Shown here piece by piece: positions 211 to 30,129 of a DNA stretch of 53,987 nucleotides; the stretch's first letter is position 1; each line of letters starts with the position of its first letter. The notes below the pieces were generated by a model, which did not search any database, was not told the origin of the DNA, and worked only from the letters and a program-made list of their open reading frames with translations. The position numbers and the translations under genes were made by a program. The stretch is from an uncultured Actinomycetes bacterium (GTDB lineage: Bacteria > Actinomycetota > Geothermincolia > Geothermincolales > RBG-13-55-18), in assembly GCA_937128055.1 (NCBI GenBank), contig CAKZMC010000160.1:1-53987 (forward strand). Direction: 5' to 3'.

Positions 211-1776
211 ATGGATAAACGGTATGTCCTGGTGAACGACGTGGGGACCACGGGGGTGCGGGCCGTTCTCTTCGACCGCGACGCCAATATCGTCCACGAA
301 ACCTATGCCGAGATCCCTCAGGTCTTTCCCAAGCCCGGCTGGACGGAACAGGACCCCCTGCTCCTCTACGAGAAATGCGTGGAGGTGACCCGGGAGACCC
401 TGCGGGCAGCGGGCGTGGGGCCGCCGCACATCGCGGCCATGGGCATCGCCACGCAGCGGGCCACCAGCCTCCTCTGGGACCGCGTGAGCGGGGAGCCGGT
501 GTACAACGCCATCACCTGGCAGGACACGCGCATGTCCGACGCGTGCGAGAAGGTCAACCGCAGCCCCCTCTTCCGCCTCCTGCACTTGCTTGGCAATATC
601 TACCAGAGAGTCGCCGTCCTCGGCGAGGGCCTGCGTCGCAACCGCCTGGGGAAGCTGCTCATCACCGCGGCGCATTTCACCGTCACCCCCGCGCAGTCCT
701 CCGCTCACGCCCGCTGGATCCTGGACAACGTGGAGGGGGCGGCGCGCAGGGCGGCGGCCAGGGAGCTGCTCTTCGGCACCGTTGATTCCTGGCTGGTCTG
801 GAAGTACACGAGGGGGGCGGTGCACGCCACCGACTACTCCAACGTCAGCGCGACCGGCATGTACGACCCCTTCGGCATGCGCTGGAGCCCGCTGCTCCTC
901 AAGCCCTTCGGGCTGCCGGGAGGGCTGCACCTGCCCGAGATCCGGGAAACCAGCGGCGACTTCGGGGTCACCGACGCTTTCGGGGAACCCATCCCCATAA
1001 GGAGCGTGGTGGCGGACCAGCAGGCCGCCCTCTTCGGGGAGGCCTGCTTCGAGCCAGGCAGCGTGAAGTGCACCAACGGGACGGGATCCTTCATCGACAT
1101 GAACACGGGCGGGGAGCCCATGGCATCGGTGCACAGGCTCACCCCCATGATCGCCTGGAGGATAGGGGGAAAGACCACCTACATGATCGAGGGAATAATT
1201 TCCAGCGCGGGCTCCTCCGTGCAGTGGCTGCGGGACAACCTGCAGATAATTGGGGATGCCGCTGAGTCGCAGGGGCTGGCGCAGTCATGCTCCGACTGCG
1301 GCGGGGTTTACTTGGTCCCCGCCTTCACCGGACTGACCGCCCCTTACTGGGACCCCTACGCGCGGGGCACGGTGATCGGCCTCACCCGCGCCACCACCCG
1401 CGAGCAGGTGGTGCGGGCTACCCTGGAGTCCATAGCCTACCAGTGCCGCGACGTCATCGAGGCCATGCGGGGGGATTCCGGCATAGAGGTGCGGTCTATC
1501 AAGGCGGACGGGGGAGCGTCCCGCAACGACTTCCTCATGCAGTTCCTGGCGGACATCCTCGATATCCAGGTGGAGCGCCCGCAGATGCTCGAGGCCACCG
1601 CCCTGGGCGCCGCCTACCTGGCGGGGATGGCGGCGGGCTTGTGGAAATACCCCGACGACATCCTGGGAACCAGGAAGGTGGAGAGGGTCTTCGCGCCGCG
1701 CATGGACGCCGCCGCCCGGGAGGAGCTCTACGCGGGATGGAAAAGGGCGGTGGAGAGGGCGCGCCACTGGGCTTGA
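211..1776 (+). CDS. FGGY-family glycerol kinase-like protein (GK5-like insertion)
   Basis: DVGTTG, ATQR, ITWQD, DQQAALFG and DGGAS motifs. Extra segment after WQD resembles eukaryotic GK5. ATG at 211; the ORF track starts at TTG 178. Confidence 0.9.
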   Translation: MDKRYVLVNDVGTTGVRAVLFDRDANIVHETYAEIPQVFPKPGWTEQDPLLLYEKCVEVTRETLRAAGVGPPHIAAMGIATQRATSLLWDRVSGEPVYNAITWQDTRMSDACEKVNRSPLFRLLHLLGNIYQRVAVLGEGLRRNRLGKLLITAAHFTVTPAQSSAHARWILDNVEGAARRAAARELLFGTVDSWLVWKYTRGAVHATDYSNVSATGMYDPFGMRWSPLLLKPFGLPGGLHLPEIRETSGDFGVTDAFGEPIPIRSVVADQQAALFGEACFEPGSVKCTNGTGSFIDMNTGGEPMASVHRLTPMIAWRIGGKTTYMIEGIISSAGSSVQWLRDNLQIIGDAAESQGLAQSCSDCGGVYLVPAFTGLTAPYWDPYARGTVIGLTRATTREQVVRATLESIAYQCRDVIEAMRGDSGIEVRSIKADGGASRNDFLMQFLADILDIQVERPQMLEATALGAAYLAGMAAGLWKYPDDILGTRKVERVFAPRMDAAAREELYAGWKRAVERARHWA

Positions 1777-21886: not shown

Positions 21887-21961
21887 GGGCGTTTAGCTCA
21901 GCGGGAGAGCGCCTGCCTTACAAGCAGGAGGTCGTGGGTTCAAATCCCGCAACGCCCACCA
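21887..21961 (+). tRNA. tRNA-Val (anticodon TAC)
   Basis: Cloverleaf: acceptor GGGCGTT/AACGCCC, anticodon arm CCTGC-CTTACAA-GCAGG, T loop TTCAAAT, encoded CCA. Confidence 0.97.
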
Positions 21962-23385: not shown

Positions 23386-23474
23386 CCTGAGATGCCGGTA
23401 ATGCAAGCGGGGCGGCTCGGGAATACGCGGTTTCCCTTCATCGCCCGCCGCGCTTTTTTGCTGCATTTGACAGG

Positions 23475-23545
23475 GGGCATGCGACCCAGCGGGTGAGCGC
23501 CTACCTTACAGGCAAGAGGTCATGGGTTCAAATCCCTTAAGGCCC
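23475..23545 (+). pseudogene. degenerate near-full-length copy of tRNA-Val(TAC) lacking its CCA end
   Basis: Colinear with 21887-21957 (CAGCGGG, GAGCGCCT, CCTTACA, GAGGTC, TGGGTTCAAATCCC); diverges at TTAA 23537-23540. Confidence 0.85.
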
Positions 23546-23630
23546 TTGGAAGACCTATCCCCACTTATCGTCCTGGGGGAGGCGGTATGAAAAAGGGCCA
23601 CGGTGGCCCCATGTTATTGGTGGGCGCTAA
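23537..23630 (-). repeat. ~93-bp tRNA-3'-end-derived repeat unit
   Basis: Reverse complement matches 29633-29726 at 91/94 nt; bounded by TTAA and CTAA cores. Confidence 0.92.
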
Positions 23631-23664
23631 AGGATTTGAACCCATGACTTCCTGCTTGTAAGGC
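23618..23664 (-). repeat. inverted 3' half of tRNA-Val (att-like fragment from anticodon to CCA)
   Basis: Reverse complement reads GCCTTACAAGCAGGAAGTCATGGGTTCAAATCCTTTAGCGCCCACCA. Confidence 0.9.
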
Positions 23665-23694
23665 CTATCCAGATTAGAAACCAAGGATTGCGGC

Positions 23695-24360
23695 TCAGGA
23701 GAAGAGGCCCTCGCGGAAGGCTTTTAGTGCATAGTCGCGGTCGTTTTCAACCAACCCTCGAATGGCCCGCGATGCTTCCTCAGCGTCTCTGCCCGTGAAC
23801 GCGTCCATGGCCTCCTGGAAAAACTTGAGATTTTCCAGGAGGTTTTCTTTCTGCATGATCAGAGCGGCGTATTCAATTCGTGCGGTAATAGGCCATAGAT
23901 ACAGCACCACGTCCTCCAGGATCTTGTTCTTACTGGATCTGCAAGAATGGTAAGCGACCTGAAAGGAGCCCTCGAGGTAGCCCTCGAGATCACCCGTTCT
24001 GGCGCTCTCACGGAGCTTCTCCAGCGCCTTTTCTATGTTCAGGAAGCTTCCCTCGTCTTGATTCTCCACCCCCCTGAAAGCAACCAGGCCGAGGATCTCC
24101 TTCAGCACGTCCGCAAGCCAGATTATTGTTTCCTCCGTTATCTCGGACACTCTCGCTCCGCGGCGCGGCGTAAGCTCCACCAGCTTCTGCTTTTCCAAGA
24201 TGCGAAGCGCCTCTCGCAAAGGTGAACGGCTCACGCCGAGCTCGTCAGCAAGTCTCGTCTCGACGATCTTCTGGCCCGGCTTCATCTCCAGGCTGATGAT
24301 CCTCTGACTGAGATAGGCCGCTATCTGCTCGGGAAGGTTTTCCGATGGTTTGAAGGGCAT
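23695..24360 (-). CDS. GntR-family regulator (FCD domain)
   Basis: PGQKIVETRLADELGVSRSPLREAL HTH with a C-terminal FCD-like helical domain; divergent from the GRE gene. Confidence 0.92.
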   Translation of the reverse strand: MPFKPSENLPEQIAAYLSQRIISLEMKPGQKIVETRLADELGVSRSPLREALRILEKQKLVELTPRRGARVSEITEETIIWLADVLKEILGLVAFRGVENQDEGSFLNIEKALEKLRESARTGDLEGYLEGSFQVAYHSCRSSKNKILEDVVLYLWPITARIEYAALIMQKENLLENLKFFQEAMDAFTGRDAEEASRAIRGLVENDRDYALKAFREGLFS

Positions 24361-24544
24361 ATCTGGCTCCCCGGGAATACACAGCCGCCGTTTGCCTGTT
24401 CCGAAAACGTGGTCCTTATCATCATGTAAGGATTTTACTTTATTGCAGGCGAATGCGGAACGTAACCATGCTGCGCATGCTCTTTCAGGCGGGAAGCGTC
24501 TGTTGCTTGGCAGAGAATCTTATTGATGATTATTGATGAAGAGC

Positions 24545-24583
24545 TTGACATAGCATACAGTATACAATATACAATATGATACA
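24545..24583 (+). promoter_or_regulatory. GRE promoter with GntR-type ATACA operator repeats
   Basis: TTGACA at 24545, followed by ATACA at 24555, 24562, 24569 and 24579 overlapping the -10 region. Confidence 0.6.
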
Positions 24584-24794
24584 AAGGAATCTATGAGCCT
24601 GAATCGATCGATGGTCGCTATTCGCGAAGTAGTTGGGCGGATTCATGCGCCATTTTAGGGCTGTTCCTGCGGCTCTAGCTGCGACGTGGCGGTGGCTTTC
24701 TGGTCGACACAGGAACGGAGGAAGCGAAAACACGTGAAGATTTTTCGGATTTCAGCATATCGGTCGGCGTTGTTCTCCAGAGGGGAAGGGGGAG

Positions 24795-27473
24795 GTGTCT
24801 CGCATGGGCGTCGCTGTTAAGCAATTGAACGCATCCCGCATCACCAAGGCAGTCCAGATAAAGGACGCCGAGCGGCCTTCGGTGAGCATGCCGGTCGAAG
24901 TCAAGCTTGATCCCAACGTCAGGATCTGCACAGAGCGCGCTGAGCTCGTTACTGAATCCTACCGCATGACGGAAGGGGAACCCTGGGTGATCAGGAGGGC
25001 GAAAGCGCTCGACCACCTCCTGCGCAACATGACCATCTACATACTGGAGGGCGAGCAGATAGTGGGCAATTACGCCAGTACCCCGGATAGCCTGCCTACC
25101 TACCCGGAGATATCATGCCGCTGGCTGGATGAGGAACTCGAGGGCGCTTTCAGGGAAAACATCGATGAAGCGGGCAGGGCGAGGCTGCGAGAGATTCATT
25201 CCTTCTGGTACGAGCGGAACGTCGAGGGCAGGATACTGGCCACCTTGCCCGATGACCTCAGAGTTTTTATCGAGAAGAGCAAGTCCACGGCCATGTTCAC
25301 CATCTTCTGGCCTTTGGGGTGCTTCACCCTCGATCTCAGGCATTGGGTTTTCCCCAGGGGGCTGCGCGGTATCGTCGAGGAGATAGGCAGGCTGCGCGGG
25401 GAGCTGCGTGCGGATGATCCGGAATACGGTGAGAAGAAGGATTTCTACGACGCCGCCGAGATATGCTGCGAGGCGGCGATTGCTTTCGCGCGGCGCTACG
25501 CGGAACTGGCTCGTAAGAAAGCGGCCTCCGCACGAGGAAAGGTCAGGGAAGATTGCCTCAGGGTAGCAGAAGTATGTTCGCGCGTGCCCGAGAACCCGCC
25601 CCGGACCTTCCACGAGGCGCTGCAGGCGGTTTTCTTCTGCCACCTGATCAGCGCGCAGATAGACTGGTACAGCGTGGGCCTAGGCCAGCGTTTAGACCAG
25701 CTTCTCTGGCCGTATTACGAAGCCGATAAGGAAGCCGGGAATATCGACTACGACCGCGCCGTGGAGCTGCTCGAGTTCCTCTGGATCAAGCTGGACGATC
25801 TGGGACAGATAAACCCCGTGACCACCTCTATCTACCAGGCGGGTGGCACGAAGTTCCAGAACATCTCGATCGGCGGGGTGGATGAGCACGGCAACGACGC
25901 CTCCAACGAGCTTTCCCTGGCAGTTTTGGACGCGACCATCGATGTACGTACGCCCCAGCCGTCCATATGCCTGCTCTTCCACGAGAAAATGGACCCGAGG
26001 CTTCTGGATAAGGCCATAGAATGCATTGCAACAGGCCAGGGACAGCCTGCCATATTCAACAACGACGTCTGCGTGAAATGGCACCTGGACAAGGCGCTGG
26101 AGATACTGTACCCGGAGTCGGGGGTCCATATCGGCGTGCCGTGTCTCGGTCTGGTGCAGAAAGCGGATCGGGTTGTGAGGAGGATGATAGCGCGGCTGCC
26201 GAGGCGCGTTCGCCAGCGAATCGAGTTATCCATAGACGAATGGCCCAATGCGGTGTACACGGGCGGGGGCGCCGTCGGGGATGCGTTGCGCAAGGTCGCA
26301 AAGAAAACGGGTTTCTGGGACGCCGAGAAAGGGATGGCGATAGCTCGCGGCTGGGCTCCGACCGCTTGCGTCGGAGGCGGACTGCAGGGCAGAGTGACCA
26401 TCCAGGGGACCCTTACTTCGATCCTCATCTTCACGGTCCTCGATTTCGTCAAATGCTTCGAGTACGTGATGTACCAGGGCGTCGAGCCGGAGACCGGTGA
26501 GCTGGTGGGGGCGCCCACGCCCGACCCCCGTACTTTTAAGACCTACGAGGAATTCCTCGAGGCTTTCATGCGGCAGATCGAGTTCCAGGTAGACCGGGCC
26601 AACCGCGCCTACCAGGTTGCGGAGAAGATTTACGAAGAACAGATGCCGCGACCATTCGCCTCGGCCTGCACGGAGACCTGCGTGAGGCGCGGTAGGGACG
26701 GAATGAGGAAGGGCGATGCGTCCATAAGCGAGATCTTCAGCATGGGCAGCGTGAACGCTGCCGAATGCCTCGCAGCGGTGAAGAGACTGGTTTTCGAGGA
26801 AAAATCCGTCACCATGGACGAACTGATCGCCGCCTGCGCGGCCAACTGGGAAGGTTACGAGGACCTGCACCGCAAGTGCCTGGAGGTGCCGAAGTTCGGC
26901 AACGACGACGATTACGTGGACGGCATCCTGGCAGAATTCTACCGCAAGGCACAGGCAGTGGTGCATTCCCACAGGGACCACTGGGGAAACGGCCTGCAGT
27001 TGGAGTCATCGCTCGCGGCCGGATATTATGTGGGCGGCCTCGTCTGCGGCGCTACCCCGGATGGTCGGGTCAAGGGAGAGACGGTCTCCGACGGACAGCT
27101 CTCTCCCATGCACGGGCGCGACGTGAAAGGACCTACGGCGGTACTGAAATCCTGCTCCAAGGTCGATCCTCACAAGACCTGGAACCAGTTATGCAACCAA
27201 AAGATAAACCCCGCCTTCCTCAAGGGCGAGAATCGCAAGCTCTTTGCCGATTACCTGCGCACCTGGCTGAAGTTCGGCAACTGGCACGTACAGTTCAACT
27301 GCCAGAGCGCCGAGGAGCTCAGGGATGCCGTGGCGCACCCTGAAAGGCACAAGGACCTGATCGTGCGGGTGGCCGGGTACAGCGCATATTTCATTGACCT
27401 GGCTCCAGGTCTGCAGCAGGATATCATCGCCCGCACGGAACAGGACCTGAGCGAGTTCGCCAGCAGAGCGTAA
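24795..27473 (+). CDS. glycyl radical enzyme of unknown function
   Basis: C-terminal HVQFN...LIVRVAGYSAYF glycyl motif, FGNDDDYVD, TPDGR; single active-site Cys in ACVG. Confidence 0.93.
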   Translation: MSRMGVAVKQLNASRITKAVQIKDAERPSVSMPVEVKLDPNVRICTERAELVTESYRMTEGEPWVIRRAKALDHLLRNMTIYILEGEQIVGNYASTPDSLPTYPEISCRWLDEELEGAFRENIDEAGRARLREIHSFWYERNVEGRILATLPDDLRVFIEKSKSTAMFTIFWPLGCFTLDLRHWVFPRGLRGIVEEIGRLRGELRADDPEYGEKKDFYDAAEICCEAAIAFARRYAELARKKAASARGKVREDCLRVAEVCSRVPENPPRTFHEALQAVFFCHLISAQIDWYSVGLGQRLDQLLWPYYEADKEAGNIDYDRAVELLEFLWIKLDDLGQINPVTTSIYQAGGTKFQNISIGGVDEHGNDASNELSLAVLDATIDVRTPQPSICLLFHEKMDPRLLDKAIECIATGQGQPAIFNNDVCVKWHLDKALEILYPESGVHIGVPCLGLVQKADRVVRRMIARLPRRVRQRIELSIDEWPNAVYTGGGAVGDALRKVAKKTGFWDAEKGMAIARGWAPTACVGGGLQGRVTIQGTLTSILIFTVLDFVKCFEYVMYQGVEPETGELVGAPTPDPRTFKTYEEFLEAFMRQIEFQVDRANRAYQVAEKIYEEQMPRPFASACTETCVRRGRDGMRKGDASISEIFSMGSVNAAECLAAVKRLVFEEKSVTMDELIAACAANWEGYEDLHRKCLEVPKFGNDDDYVDGILAEFYRKAQAVVHSHRDHWGNGLQLESSLAAGYYVGGLVCGATPDGRVKGETVSDGQLSPMHGRDVKGPTAVLKSCSKVDPHKTWNQLCNQKINPAFLKGENRKLFADYLRTWLKFGNWHVQFNCQSAEELRDAVAHPERHKDLIVRVAGYSAYFIDLAPGLQQDIIARTEQDLSEFASRA

Positions 27474-27613
27474 TCGGAAGACAGCCTTTCTCCAGCTGCT
27501 TGATGGCAGGGGAAAGGCGTGAGATGACCGCGCTGGGGAAAATGGGCTGGAGACGCAATAACAGTTTTAAGGGCTTAAGCGGGAGGTCCGGTCGTCGTGG
27601 CGGTGACGACGTT

Positions 27614-28546
27614 GTGGAGGGCCTGGTCTTCAACATCCAGAAATTCAGCATCCATGATGGCCCCGGCATCAGGACTACCGTCTTCCTCAAGGGATGTCCC
27701 CTGCGCTGCCCCTGGTGCTCCAACCCCGAATCCATCAACCCCTTTCCAGAGGTGCTCGCCAAGTTCGAAAACCTCTGCCTGGATTGCGGCAGGTGCAACG
27801 AGGTCTGCCCTCGCGAAGCCATCGTGGTCACCAAGAAGGATCGTGCCGACGTCGACGACGGCGGGCACATGCGCTCAATAGACCGTGATCTCTGCGAGCG
27901 GTGCATGAAATGCGTCGAGGTATGTCCCAGCGGCGCGTTGAGCAAGGTGGGCGAGGTAAGAACGGTGGGCGAGATAATGGGCCTGGTGGAGCAAGACCGC
28001 CTCTTCTATGAGACCAGCGGCGGAGGCATAACCCTATCGGGGGGAGAACCGCTGTTGCAGCCGCACTTCACCCTTGCGCTATTACGGGAAGCGAAGAGGA
28101 GAAGCATCCACACCGCCGTGGACACCAGCGGCCACGCCCCCCGTGAGGTGCTGGAAGGCGTTCTGCCGTATGTGGACCTGGTGCTCTTTGACATCAAGCA
28201 CGCCGACCCGGTGATCCATCGCGATACCGTGGGGGTGGATAACCTGCTGATATTTAACAACCTTGAATATCTTTCTGGTAAGACGAGAATATGGATCCGC
28301 GTGCCTCTTATACCGGGTTTCAACGACGATAAGGCGGGAATCTGTGCGATAGCGGAAAAGATACGTCGCTTGTGTTTCGATAAGCTGTGCATTCTGCCAT
28401 ATCACAACTGGGGGAGCGGAAAGTACGCCGCTTTAGGGAGAAGTTATCCTCTGAGCGAAAAAGATGAGACCAATCCCGCCTGCCCCTGCCTGGCGCAGGC
28501 GCTTTTCAGGGCGGCGGGCGTGCAGGATTGCGAAATCGTGCGATGA
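27614..28546 (+). CDS. glycyl-radical activating enzyme (radical SAM with ferredoxin insert)
   Basis: HDGPGIRTTVFLKGCPLRCPWCSNPES, two CxxCxxCxxxC clusters, SGGEPL. The start could be upstream (ORF track 27500). Confidence 0.93.
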   Translation: MEGLVFNIQKFSIHDGPGIRTTVFLKGCPLRCPWCSNPESINPFPEVLAKFENLCLDCGRCNEVCPREAIVVTKKDRADVDDGGHMRSIDRDLCERCMKCVEVCPSGALSKVGEVRTVGEIMGLVEQDRLFYETSGGGITLSGGEPLLQPHFTLALLREAKRRSIHTAVDTSGHAPREVLEGVLPYVDLVLFDIKHADPVIHRDTVGVDNLLIFNNLEYLSGKTRIWIRVPLIPGFNDDKAGICAIAEKIRRLCFDKLCILPYHNWGSGKYAALGRSYPLSEKDETNPACPCLAQALFRAAGVQDCEIVR

Positions 28547-28636
28547 TGGTGGGGGCCAGGATCTGGCTGCCACTCGAACGGAGTCGGAGTGCGTTAAACT
28601 CGTCTTCAACAGTTACATTTTGAGATTACCAGGTAA

Positions 28637-28697
28637 GGTGGCGTCAAGGGATTTGGAAGGCCTGTCCCCACTTGTCGTCCTCGCTTGGCAGTGATGG
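28637..28697 (-). repeat. partial, diverged copy of the repeat unit (cassette junction)
   Basis: Reverse complement contains GGACGACAAGTGGGGACAGGCCTTCCAAATCCC-TTGA-CGCCACC. Confidence 0.8.
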
Positions 28698-28727
28698 TTA
28701 TGCTGAATACGCGAGGAAGTCGATTTT

Positions 28728-29120
28728 TCAGTCCGAAGCGTGTGTCTCGAAAAAGGCAACTGCTTCTTCCTTGGATATATCCCCCGCTGCAACCCCGAGG
28801 CAAAGCCGTTTTAGTTCCTCATTCGACGCCTCGAGCTGCACGCCGTTGATGTTCAAGAATATCTCGGCGGCTACAACCGCCGTACGCTTGTTGCCGTCAA
28901 GAAATGGGTGGTTCTTGCAGATATGAAAGAGGTACGCCGCGGCCATGGCGGGAAGGCTCTTATGAAGGAACTCACCTGCTAAGGCAGCAGTCGGCATCGC
29001 CACCGCACTTTCGAGCATTCCACGGTCTGCGATGCCCTCGGCCCCGCCGAACTCGGCTATCATGCGTGCGTGGATCTTCAGTATGTCTTCGAACGAGAGG
29101 AATACGGGTTCCACGCTCAC
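28728..29120 (-). CDS. doc: Doc-family (Fic) toxin
   Basis: HPFLDGNKRTA Doc-type motif; 130 aa; overlaps the antitoxin stop codon. Confidence 0.92.
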   Translation of the reverse strand: MSVEPVFLSFEDILKIHARMIAEFGGAEGIADRGMLESAVAMPTAALAGEFLHKSLPAMAAAYLFHICKNHPFLDGNKRTAVVAAEIFLNINGVQLEASNEELKRLCLGVAAGDISKEEAVAFFETHASD

Positions 29121-29350
29121 GAATCAGCCAGTTCCTTGAGCACCTTCCCGCGCTCCCCCACGATTCGGTCCAGGTGACGCTCGAGCTCCTCCGGGTCCAC
29201 CCGCCGAGGGCTCACGGGAGTGATGATTATCGACCCGTTGCTCACCGTCAACTGGACTTCCTTGCCCTCTTCAAGCCCGACCATCTCCATGATCGGCAGA
29301 TCCAGTATGAGGGCGTTGCTGTTTCCCACTTTCTGCAGTCTCTTTATCAT
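29117..29350 (-). CDS. AbrB/MazE/SpoVT-type antitoxin
   Basis: KRLQKVGNSNALIL swapped-hairpin motif; C-terminal LKELA; upstream of doc. Confidence 0.9.
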   Translation of the reverse strand: MIKRLQKVGNSNALILDLPIMEMVGLEEGKEVQLTVSNGSIIITPVSPRRVDPEELERHLDRIVGERGKVLKELADS

Positions 29351-29365
29351 TGTGCCGACTCCTTT

Positions 29366-29388
29366 ATGTTATAACATAATTATAACAT
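29366..29388 (-). promoter_or_regulatory. putative TA autoregulatory operator
   Basis: Perfect palindrome ATGTTATAACAT at 29366-29377 plus an adjacent TTATAACAT copy, just upstream of the antitoxin. Confidence 0.6.
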
Positions 29389-29543
29389 CATTTGATCCCA
29401 AGTCAATCCCGCGCAGCAAGACAAGAATCGCAGCCCCTTATAGGGCATGACCGCAGAAGCTGCTGGTTGGCGCCGGCAGACAGATCAAGCCGAGGCAGCA
29501 TTAAGCGAGGCATGGAGTCCGGCTTCTATTGCTCTGGTGGGCG

Positions 29544-29814
29544 TTAAGGCCTCTGGAAGACCTATTCCAGTTTATCCTACTGGGGGAGGCGGTATGAAAA
29601 AGAGCCGCAGGCGCCCCAAAAATTGGTGGGCGTTAACGCCCACCAATAACATGGGGCCACCGTGGCCCTTTTTCATACCGCCTCCCCCAGGACGATAAGT
29701 GGGGACAGGTCTTCCAAGCGCCTTAACGCCTGCCAATCACCAGGGCCCCTGCGGCCTCCATCACAACGCCTCATCCAGGACGACAAGTGGGGATAGGCCT
29801 CCCCGGGGCCTTAG
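29544..29814. repeat. three adjacent ~93-bp units (one inverted, two direct) joined at TTAA cores
   Basis: Cores TTAA 29544, TTAA 29633, TTAA 29723 and TTAG 29811. A 26-bp perfect palindrome at 29622-29647 marks the head-to-head junction. Confidence 0.92.
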
Positions 29815-30100
29815 CGCACGCGGAGGCATAAAGGCTGAGAGCACCCGCCTCTCCGTGCTAGGACCGGCGAAGTAGCGCCGCGGCCTTGATCGCCGGCGGC
29901 GGGCGGCGGTGAGGCCGACATGCCGCGTGCCGGCCAGCACCGGCACGGTGTAACCGGCCCGATAGCGCGGCAGGGCCGTGAAACGGGCATCCCGCCGCTT
30001 GCCCCTCGCCACCCTCAAAAAGCCCGGTCAAGGAGGCGGAAAAACATCCCCCTTAAAAGGGCTTCGCGCTTGCGTTCTGAGGATTTGCGGGAAACATGCC

Positions 30101-30129
30101 TTGATATATAAGCACGAAGGGGTTATATT
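30101..30129 (+). promoter_or_regulatory. sigma70-type promoter of the RRM gene
   Basis: TTGATA, 17-bp spacer, TATATT. Confidence 0.55.

Follow-up and report, generated by a model that had tools for sequence, protein, structure and literature searches.

The window analyzed here is a whole stretch of 53,987 nucleotides (contig CAKZMC010000160.1) from the 210-contig, 99%-complete metagenome assembly of an uncultured actinobacterium. To judge by its sequence, it contains the decayed remnant of an array of att-like recombination sites linked to a tRNA-Val gene, and a 6.1-kb block of this array (23537-29636), carrying genes for a glycyl radical enzyme (GRE) and a Phd-Doc toxin-antitoxin pair, appears to have been turned around. 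Comparison with the relatives gives good support to an inversion that broke the DNA at the TTAA core of one array site and at that of another. It seems probable to us that this was a single, conservative, site-specific inversion within the tRNA-Val array, carried out at the palindromic core by a recombinase acting in trans. The initial annotation of this DNA had already proposed such an inversion, and the truncated tRNA copy, the palindrome, the inverted repeats and the tRNA half-site on which it relied are all present in the window.

The sites of these arrays are about 100 bp long in all and have a constant order, i.e., a conserved L arm of ~45 nt, the core TTAA, the 13 nt of the tRNA-Val 3' end (CGCCCACCA) and a terminator hairpin, of which there are two common types. 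The alignment of 40 distinct sites from 20 loci of relatives gave the consensus ..CCGCCTCC.C.AGGAcGAcAAGTGGGG.aAGGTCTTCCAaGGGCC - TTAA - CGCCCACCA - terminator hairpin. All 40 read (C/T)(C/T)-core-CGCCCACCA, and the core was TTAA in 33 of them, counted with a search pattern that admitted five core variants only. A full unit is the shortest core-to-core interval (89-92 bp), made up of a terminator-type right (R) arm followed by one L arm. In the relatives, a unit is located directly downstream of full tRNA-Val genes (of both the TAC and CAC types) and is then repeated along the DNA. These array-carrying tRNA-Val genes end in ...AAATCCC-TTAA-CGCCCACCA, a native variant of the 3' end that is also found in a family without arrays. 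No attC-like folding of the units or of the full site was found in comparison with shuffled sequences (z = -0.10, +0.08, -1.61 and +0.53), and in the only candidate hairpin of the L arm the 5' half varies without compensation in the site alignment, as judged by eye. The possibility that the L arm is a decayed tRNA half was unsupported (405 of 2000 shuffles align to the tRNA equally well), and a known RNA was ruled out, the real tRNA being all that Rfam gives at E≤1. From their composition, the units appear to be the att-like recombination sites of a tRNA-Val-linked cassette array.

In the window, the functional tRNA-Val(TAC) gene (21887-21961, plus strand; called by ARAGORN, and with 76 bits for the Rfam tRNA model) ends in ...AAATCCC-GCAA-CGCCCACCA and has no array behind it. 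The array remnant starts instead at a pseudo-tRNA, fragment A (23487-23536, plus strand), that corresponds, with 86-90% identity, to tRNA-Val from position 13 to ~62 and the T arm (86% for the aligned stretch 23487-23545 against positions 13-71). Fragment A is missing its first 12 nt as well as the 3' strand of the acceptor, gets no Rfam call at E≤1 and ends in ...GGTTCAAATCCC, followed by TTAA at 23537-23540. Its CATGGG...CCC-TTAA (a TTAA-type end with a CATGGG T-stem) is the same as in the array-bearing tRNA-Val genes of the relatives. This TTAA is the left breakpoint, where fragment A meets the reverse complement of an L arm belonging to unit U1 (23537-23630, minus strand). U1 reads TTAG-CGCCCACCA, terminator, L arm, TTAA, and is 96-99% identical to the unit found right behind the tRNA-Val of genome G017. 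A 3' half of tRNA-Val, fragment B (23618-23664, minus strand; 47 nt, positions 29-75, 87% identical), continues directly into U1. Further along, a partial unit (28640-28681, minus strand) is formed by an L arm, the degenerate core TTGA (TCAA on the plus strand at 28644-28647) and CGCCACC, and marks the border between the Phd-Doc cassette and the GRE block. Unit U2 (29544-29636, minus strand) is 80% identical to U1 and U3 and has its tRNA-3'-end side toward the right breakpoint, the TTAA core at 29633-29636. There, unit U3 (29633-29726) begins in the same orientation as the tRNA, i.e., on the plus strand, followed by the degenerate unit U4 (29723-29815), which is also in the orientation of the tRNA and reads TTAA-CGCCTGCCA ... 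TTAG.

The right breakpoint is the center of a perfect 26-bp palindrome (29622-29647; ATTGGTGGGCG-TTAA-CGCCCACCAAT), in which two tRNA ends of the CGCCCACCA type are placed back to back. None of 200 Markov-1 shuffles of the window reached this length (the longest palindrome per shuffle had a mean of 16.5 bp and a maximum of 24). The arms around the palindrome (29535-29618 and 29652-29735; 84 nt) are 80% complementary, and U1 and U3 themselves form inverted repeats of 94 nt (23537-23630 and 29633-29726) that are 97% complementary (91/94) and contain a common exact stretch of 68 nt. Copies of the unit in this genome are restricted to this locus and one 89%-similar site pair on another contig (C124), which ruled out a miniature inverted-repeat transposable element (MITE) or a repetitive extragenic palindromic (REP) element spread over the genome. 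The C124 pair (C124:810-947, 89% identical to window 29689-29825, a stretch that includes U4) is a paralogous pair of array sites, located behind an antisense membrane-protein open reading frame (ORF) near the contig start, with its tRNA anchor outside the assembled DNA.

The orientation of the sites is strictly maintained elsewhere. All sites are co-oriented in 17/17 of the other contigs that carry at least two, the window's contig being the only mixed one, and they follow the orientation of the tRNA in all 15 loci of relatives that have both a tRNA-Val and sites. The Phd-Doc pair is also co-oriented with the array in the four relatives where it occurs (4/4), and in the window it agrees with U2 and the partial unit and opposes fragment A, U3, U4 and the tRNA. 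We reversed 23537-29636 in silico and compared the 28 nt around each TTAA with 39 loci (306 kb). The reversal has the four effects that the initial annotation had described: it joins ...AAATCCC-TTAA to CGCCCACCA, removes the 26-bp palindrome, brings U1, U2, the partial unit and the tRNA half into the orientation of the tRNA and makes a tandem pair of U1 and U3. Fragments A and B become in addition a direct-repeat pair around a 6-kb island. The alternative junctions, which had been suggested as a check, are indeed present in relatives. The reversed left junction was found exactly in three loci (L036, L037 and L064), with 15 matches at ≤2 mismatches, and the reversed right junction exactly in one (L034), with 10 such matches; these counts include overlapping loci of the same contigs (L019/L032, L026/L027 and L038/L057). 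The two junctions observed in the window had no match at ≤2 mismatches in the same 39 loci. Among 30 genomes of the order, the head-to-head junction was found in no other, except for one match with 2 mismatches in G029:C32, from a family without arrays and known by pattern match only. Within the window's own assembly, no contig carries the alternative junctions; the reversed junctions are absent at ≤2 mismatches, and the matches at 3 mismatches are only the real tRNA 3' end and tRNA half B. No base has been gained or lost at either junction. Since the reversal restores the canonical junctions of the relatives and the observed ones are found in no relative, an inversion from one TTAA core to the other is well supported by these comparisons.

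We propose the following mechanism. The ancestral order, all in one orientation, would have been pseudo-tRNA A, U2, the Phd-Doc cassette (900 bp), the partial unit, activase-GRE-GntR, half B, U1, U3 and U4. Conservative site-specific recombination would then have taken place between the direct repeats A-TTAA-R(U2) and L(U1)-TTAA-R(U3), with the two sites aligned antiparallel, flipping 23537-29636. An equivalent route would be the excision of the segment as a circle and its re-insertion backwards. Direct repeats can be synapsed in this antiparallel way only through a self-complementary center, which the TTAA provides. The equivalent position of the breakpoints in two homologous sites, together with the absence of any base change, points to conservative site-specific recombination and not to random breakage. 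At each junction, both sides of the TTAA have kept the parental bases, which limits the exchanged tract to 4 bp at most. The enzyme would have acted in trans, encoded outside the window, and the event would have been a one-off, not a maintained switch. A candidate for the type of enzyme, sporadic in its occurrence, is the tyrosine integrase adjacent to tRNA-Val in a small primase-carrying element of genomes G021 and G011. In G021:C212 (132-4105), this element codes for a CHC2 zinc-finger protein, a DUF3631 protein and a 306-amino-acid tyrosine integrase, right upstream of a full tRNA-Val and a unit. The G011 integrase, also upstream of its tRNA-Val, is 93% identical to it and is split over two contig ends (C32 and C58). 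The sequences themselves show the site architecture, the strict co-orientation elsewhere, the precise TTAA breakpoints and the canonical junctions restored by the reversal; a recombinase, an antiparallel pairing of the sites and a one-time event are what we infer, and a one-off, conservative, recombinase-made event is the most likely origin of the present arrangement.

Several points weigh against this reconstruction. The overlap used by tyrosine integrases is usually 6-8 bp, and an exchange of ≤4 bp falls below it; it would fit the 2-bp stagger of a serine recombinase or a Holliday junction resolved by the host. No recombinase gene is present in the window (no PF00589 or PF00239 match on the contig), and the whole assembly has only XerD (341 bits, with a cut-off of 330) and a XerC-like protein, with no gene of the serine recombinase/resolvase family. 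Xer recombination was considered, these two being the sole tyrosine recombinases of the assembly; inverted arms like those of dif are not apparent in the site by eye. Nor is any integrase consistently linked to the arrays in relatives, among which one lies right upstream of tRNA-Val only in G021:C212 and G011:C32; the conserved genes upstream of the arrays code for TPR and BNR/TIG proteins, not recombinases. The strict co-orientation of sites in the relatives implies that the normal reaction reads polarity, which makes the event in the window an illegitimate and rare one. Finally, the 68-nt exact stretch shared by U1 and U3 might have left a short-k assembler free to place the 6 kb between them either way round. 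The recombinase acting on a self-complementary core, as originally put forward, is plausible in view of the precise exchange at equivalent positions, but there is no gene for it in the window or, apart from XerD and the XerC-like protein, in the assembly.

This last point leads to a different view of the size of the inverted piece. It might be that only the 94-bp U1 was inverted (from TTAA 23537 to TTAG 23627-23630) and that the 6.0 kb between U1 and U3 were oriented by the assembler or flip in the population, by homologous recombination between the two. These two 97% identical inverted repeats, in a metagenome assembly of 210 contigs, would lend themselves to either; flipping 23631-29632 also yields canonical junctions (B to U3 and an A-unit-U2 series), and the junction type tRNA-TTAA-AATAACATGG is present in L027, L028 and L031. 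However, assemblers mostly break contigs at unresolved repeats and seldom guess, and reads of 150 nt can phase the repeat through three mismatches near both its ends, so that we regard this version as unlikely. Even so, it would still need an inversion from core to core; the mechanism would be the same, and the difference would lie only in how long the inverted piece is and which genes it contains. A flip produced entirely by the assembly or binning, with no cell carrying any inverted unit, appears highly improbable. The genome is metagenome assembled, has repeated units and includes a paralogous site pair on C124, but in an all-direct array the sole inverted match is one of 4 bp and direct repeats give a de Bruijn path no way to switch strand, so an assembler could not have made this arrangement from such an array. 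A fold-back chimera is argued against by the arms around the palindrome (U2 and U3), which are 80% and not 100% identical, and both junctions are precise.

A real inversion could also have arisen without a dedicated enzyme, by template switching during replication or by the end joining of two breaks, with a chance use of the 4-bp TTAA microhomology. In favor of this explanation, the breakpoints have just these 4 bp in common and no recombinase gene is present. Nevertheless, both breaks are at exactly the equivalent spot of two homologous ~100-bp sites located 6.1 kb apart, where the L (or tRNA) arm gives way to the R arm, and no base was gained or lost, which random breaks would seldom achieve; end joining usually leaves small indels. 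We think it improbable that the inversion came about in this way. As for a shufflon-like or phase-variation switch that is maintained and flips the GRE and toxin-antitoxin block reversibly, which the initial annotation had offered as an option, the block is now flanked by 94-nt inverted repeats and the core is palindromic, but other observations speak against it. There is no recombinase adjacent or internal to the block (its genes are GntR, GRE, activase, Doc and Phd), the junctions, both in non-coding repeat DNA, alter neither a promoter nor a gene fusion, the order has no second head-to-head junction beyond the G029:C32 pattern match, no contig of the assembly has the alternative junctions, and the block is missing altogether from the sister species G001. 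We give this idea hardly any credit, and the proposal was not supported. The single recombinase-made inversion at the TTAA cores is the reading that we retain.

The arrays appear to be a feature of one family. The site pattern was detected in 17/30 genomes of the order at ≤3 mismatches and in 16/51 genomes of the class at ≤2 mismatches, all of them in the family of the window (f1). A control with the reversed pattern gave 5 matches in 4 genomes at ≤3 mismatches and none at ≤2, and there were 0 matches to two site patterns in viral contigs. The intervals between sites range from 0.09 to 6.6 kb and contain cassettes without integrase, many of them multi-gene and many with genes antisense to the array. 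Their cargo includes ParE/RHH, AbiEi, Fic and Phd/Doc, a P-type ATPase, an amidohydrolase, a sugar kinase, a glycosyltransferase, a Schlafen/AlbA_2 ATPase, TetR regulators and a group II intron; a different GRE, together with its activase, is carried in G023. The Phd-Doc cassette measures 900 bp both in the window and in G021:C11, and the ParE/RHH cassette 792 bp in both G009 and G017. In other arrays, the Phd-Doc cassette is found first, in the middle or last, behind two different tRNA-Val genes. These equal lengths at differing positions and tRNAs, together with a strain-level break at a site core (see below), indicate that the pieces move as units.

The loci recovered from the relatives (L027-L043 and L057-L064) are hypervariable arrays behind tRNA-Val(TAC) and tRNA-Val(CAC), rich in toxin-antitoxin and defense genes and most of them without a linked integrase. 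Species of one genus have a common upstream flank and wholly different cassettes. One array behind tRNA-Val(CAC) has a group II intron reverse transcriptase/maturase in its first cassette (G020:C20, 2719-4128). In the sister species G001, both flanks of the window locus are kept and 23416-30125 is replaced by ~590 bp with a small gene. At the position corresponding to fragment A (window 23480-23505), G001:C5 has at ~1430-1470 (minus-strand ruler) a stretch that by eye resembles a tRNA D arm, followed by a small unrelated ORF, which suggests that the pseudo-tRNA is older than the split of the two species. The GRE and activase cassette of G023:C20, antisense to its array, was dropped as support for the un-inverted order, its protein being only 34-36% identical to the GRE of the window.

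Five genes are found inside 23537-29636. A regulator of the GntR/FCD family (23695-24360, minus strand; PF00392 2e-18, PF07729 7e-9) is followed by the GRE (24795-27473, plus strand), with PFL-like and Gly_radical domains (PF02901 8e-150, PF01228 1.5e-27), and by its activase (27500-28546, plus strand), a radical SAM protein with ferredoxin-type clusters (PF04055, PF13353 and Fer4 families). The type II toxin-antitoxin pair is on the minus strand and consists of a Doc/Fic toxin (28728-29120; PF02661 4.7e-18) and a Phd-like antitoxin of a MazE/AbrB-type fold family (29117-29350; PF04014 6.5e-6). Compared with the array cassettes of G021 and G009, the toxin has 81-87% and the antitoxin 94-97% amino acid identity. 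Just upstream of the Phd start, a perfect 16-bp palindrome (29364-29379) is located within an AT-rich repeat with TTATAACAT motifs and may be the operator of the Phd-Doc operon.

A metagenome contig from the same species (L044) is 99.4% identical to the window at the DNA level over 24989-28635 (3647 bp), and the GRE that it encodes is 100% identical to that of the window over residues 66-892. The two sequences part at the partial-unit core (the last ~20 nt were aligned by eye), which indicates that this core has acted as a recombination point at the strain level. In place of the Phd-Doc side, L044:3640-4138 has a small ORF on the minus strand, together with one end of a repeat. Copies of this repeat with 90-95% identity are found at the ends of at least 13 contigs of the window's genome; the repeat is presumably an insertion sequence and a cause of the fragmented assembly. 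The second metagenome contig encoding a GRE (L045) is 77% identical and has another gene order, and neither of the two extends to an inversion junction. The sole match in the scan of genome contigs was 38% identical and came from an Oscillospiraceae genome. A genome of another family of the class has three tandem GRE paralogues (G036:C1, 1-5602), one of them 76% identical to the GRE of the window and the others ~55%, which is consistent with the latter being acquired cargo.

Arrays of pieces inserted next to small-RNA genes have been described before. The tycheposon islands of Prochlorococcus have partial tRNAs, successive integrations that push older elements inward and degenerate remnants, and an inversion reported in a culture was put down to identical copies of an element that had undergone homologous recombination (Hackl et al. 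2020, bioRxiv 10.1101/2020.12.28.424599). The ssrA-specific islands of Dehalococcoides are a second case of tandem islands (McMurdie et al. 2011, PMC3146451). The arrays found here resemble both in that a small-RNA gene receives one insertion after another at its 3' end, with displacement of the older elements, in that each piece is bounded by a repeat of that end, in the many cargo-only pieces without integrase, in a content that is hypervariable among close relatives and in the presence of niche and defense genes. They differ in their repeat, which is a composite site of ~100 bp (the 45-nt L arm, the 13-nt tRNA end and the terminator), in the very small size of many cassettes (“empty” units of 89-92 bp and toxin-antitoxin cassettes of 0.7-1 kb) and in that the arrays of most genomes have no linked integrase. 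The flip in the window also differs from the tycheposon inversion, the exchange having been from core to core. Int-pTN3 of Thermococcus nautili, a tRNA-targeting tyrosine integrase of a mobile element, can invert chromosomal DNA between tRNA-derived sites; its substrates were in inverted orientation and it has an additional, homology-driven activity on segments of at least about 100 bp (Cossu et al. 2017, PMC5495485). The likeness to this case is a rearrangement between tRNA-derived sites that homologous recombination fails to explain. Here, however, the parental sites are direct repeats in which only a 4-bp palindrome can be aligned, the organism is a bacterium and the enzyme is known only as a candidate type. 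A full-text search of the literature, in which taxon names were not queried and supplements were not covered, gave analogues but no description of these arrays.

Integrons, and the clusters of attC sites lacking integrase (CALINs), hold small cassettes without recombinase, often toxin-antitoxin pairs, between conserved sites. The arrays of this family are similar to them in cassette size, in toxin-antitoxin content and in the presence of the same cassette at different array positions across genomes. In contrast, their sites do not have an attC-like fold, they have no IntI-type integrase beside them, a tRNA gene serves as their anchor and many cassettes are multi-gene and antisense to the array. 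No integrase is present on the window contig, and the integrase of G021:C212 scores 69 bits against the integron-integrase model (cut-off 265). Sites of the lox/FRT type lose their directionality when their spacers are symmetric, and a self-complementary crossover region allows either orientation, so direct repeats can invert. The self-complementary core and the inversion between direct repeats found here are of this kind. The natural switches known to us (shufflons, Hin/Gin and Fim) have a dedicated recombinase beside the segment and a regulated output; unlike them, the window has neither, and the sites are polar in the relatives. By its features, the locus belongs to a known kind of system, a tRNA-anchored array of att sites, with a recombinase-type rearrangement. 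The array starts at the tRNA 3' end in the orientation of the tRNA (in the window, after the reversal and with fragment A as the anchor), its elements are bounded by a direct repeat that holds this end, and the pieces move as units, with no tyrosine or serine integrase in or beside the array of the window.

The palindrome and the scattered tRNA pieces are not random debris but sites of a tRNA-Val-anchored array that is widespread in the family of the window. The GRE operon and Doc/Phd make up a site-bounded accessory block, missing from the sister species and with another neighbor in a contig of the same species. The window would also be a natural illustration of a site-specific system that can invert the DNA between direct repeats thanks to a self-complementary crossover core, and the head-to-head junction is a signature that can be used to look for such events in metagenome assemblies. 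No new regulatory switch is revealed, and the flip by itself is a neat, fairly ordinary rearrangement; the family-wide cassette array is the more noteworthy of the two. A tentative and rather speculative extension is that the units may be the recombination sites of a cassette platform similar to integrons and so far undescribed, restricted to a single family of uncultured anaerobic Actinomycetota. A recombinase acting in trans, with its strand exchange confined to the 4-bp palindromic core, would serve these sites. If so, polarity would be read from the arms alone and the inversion in the window would be the footprint of an enzyme that synapsed two sites the wrong way round. In such a platform, sites of ~100 bp behind two tRNA-Val genes would capture and shuffle integrase-less cassettes of 0.7-6.6 kb with toxin-antitoxin pairs, defense genes, glycyl radical enzymes and transporters as their cargo.

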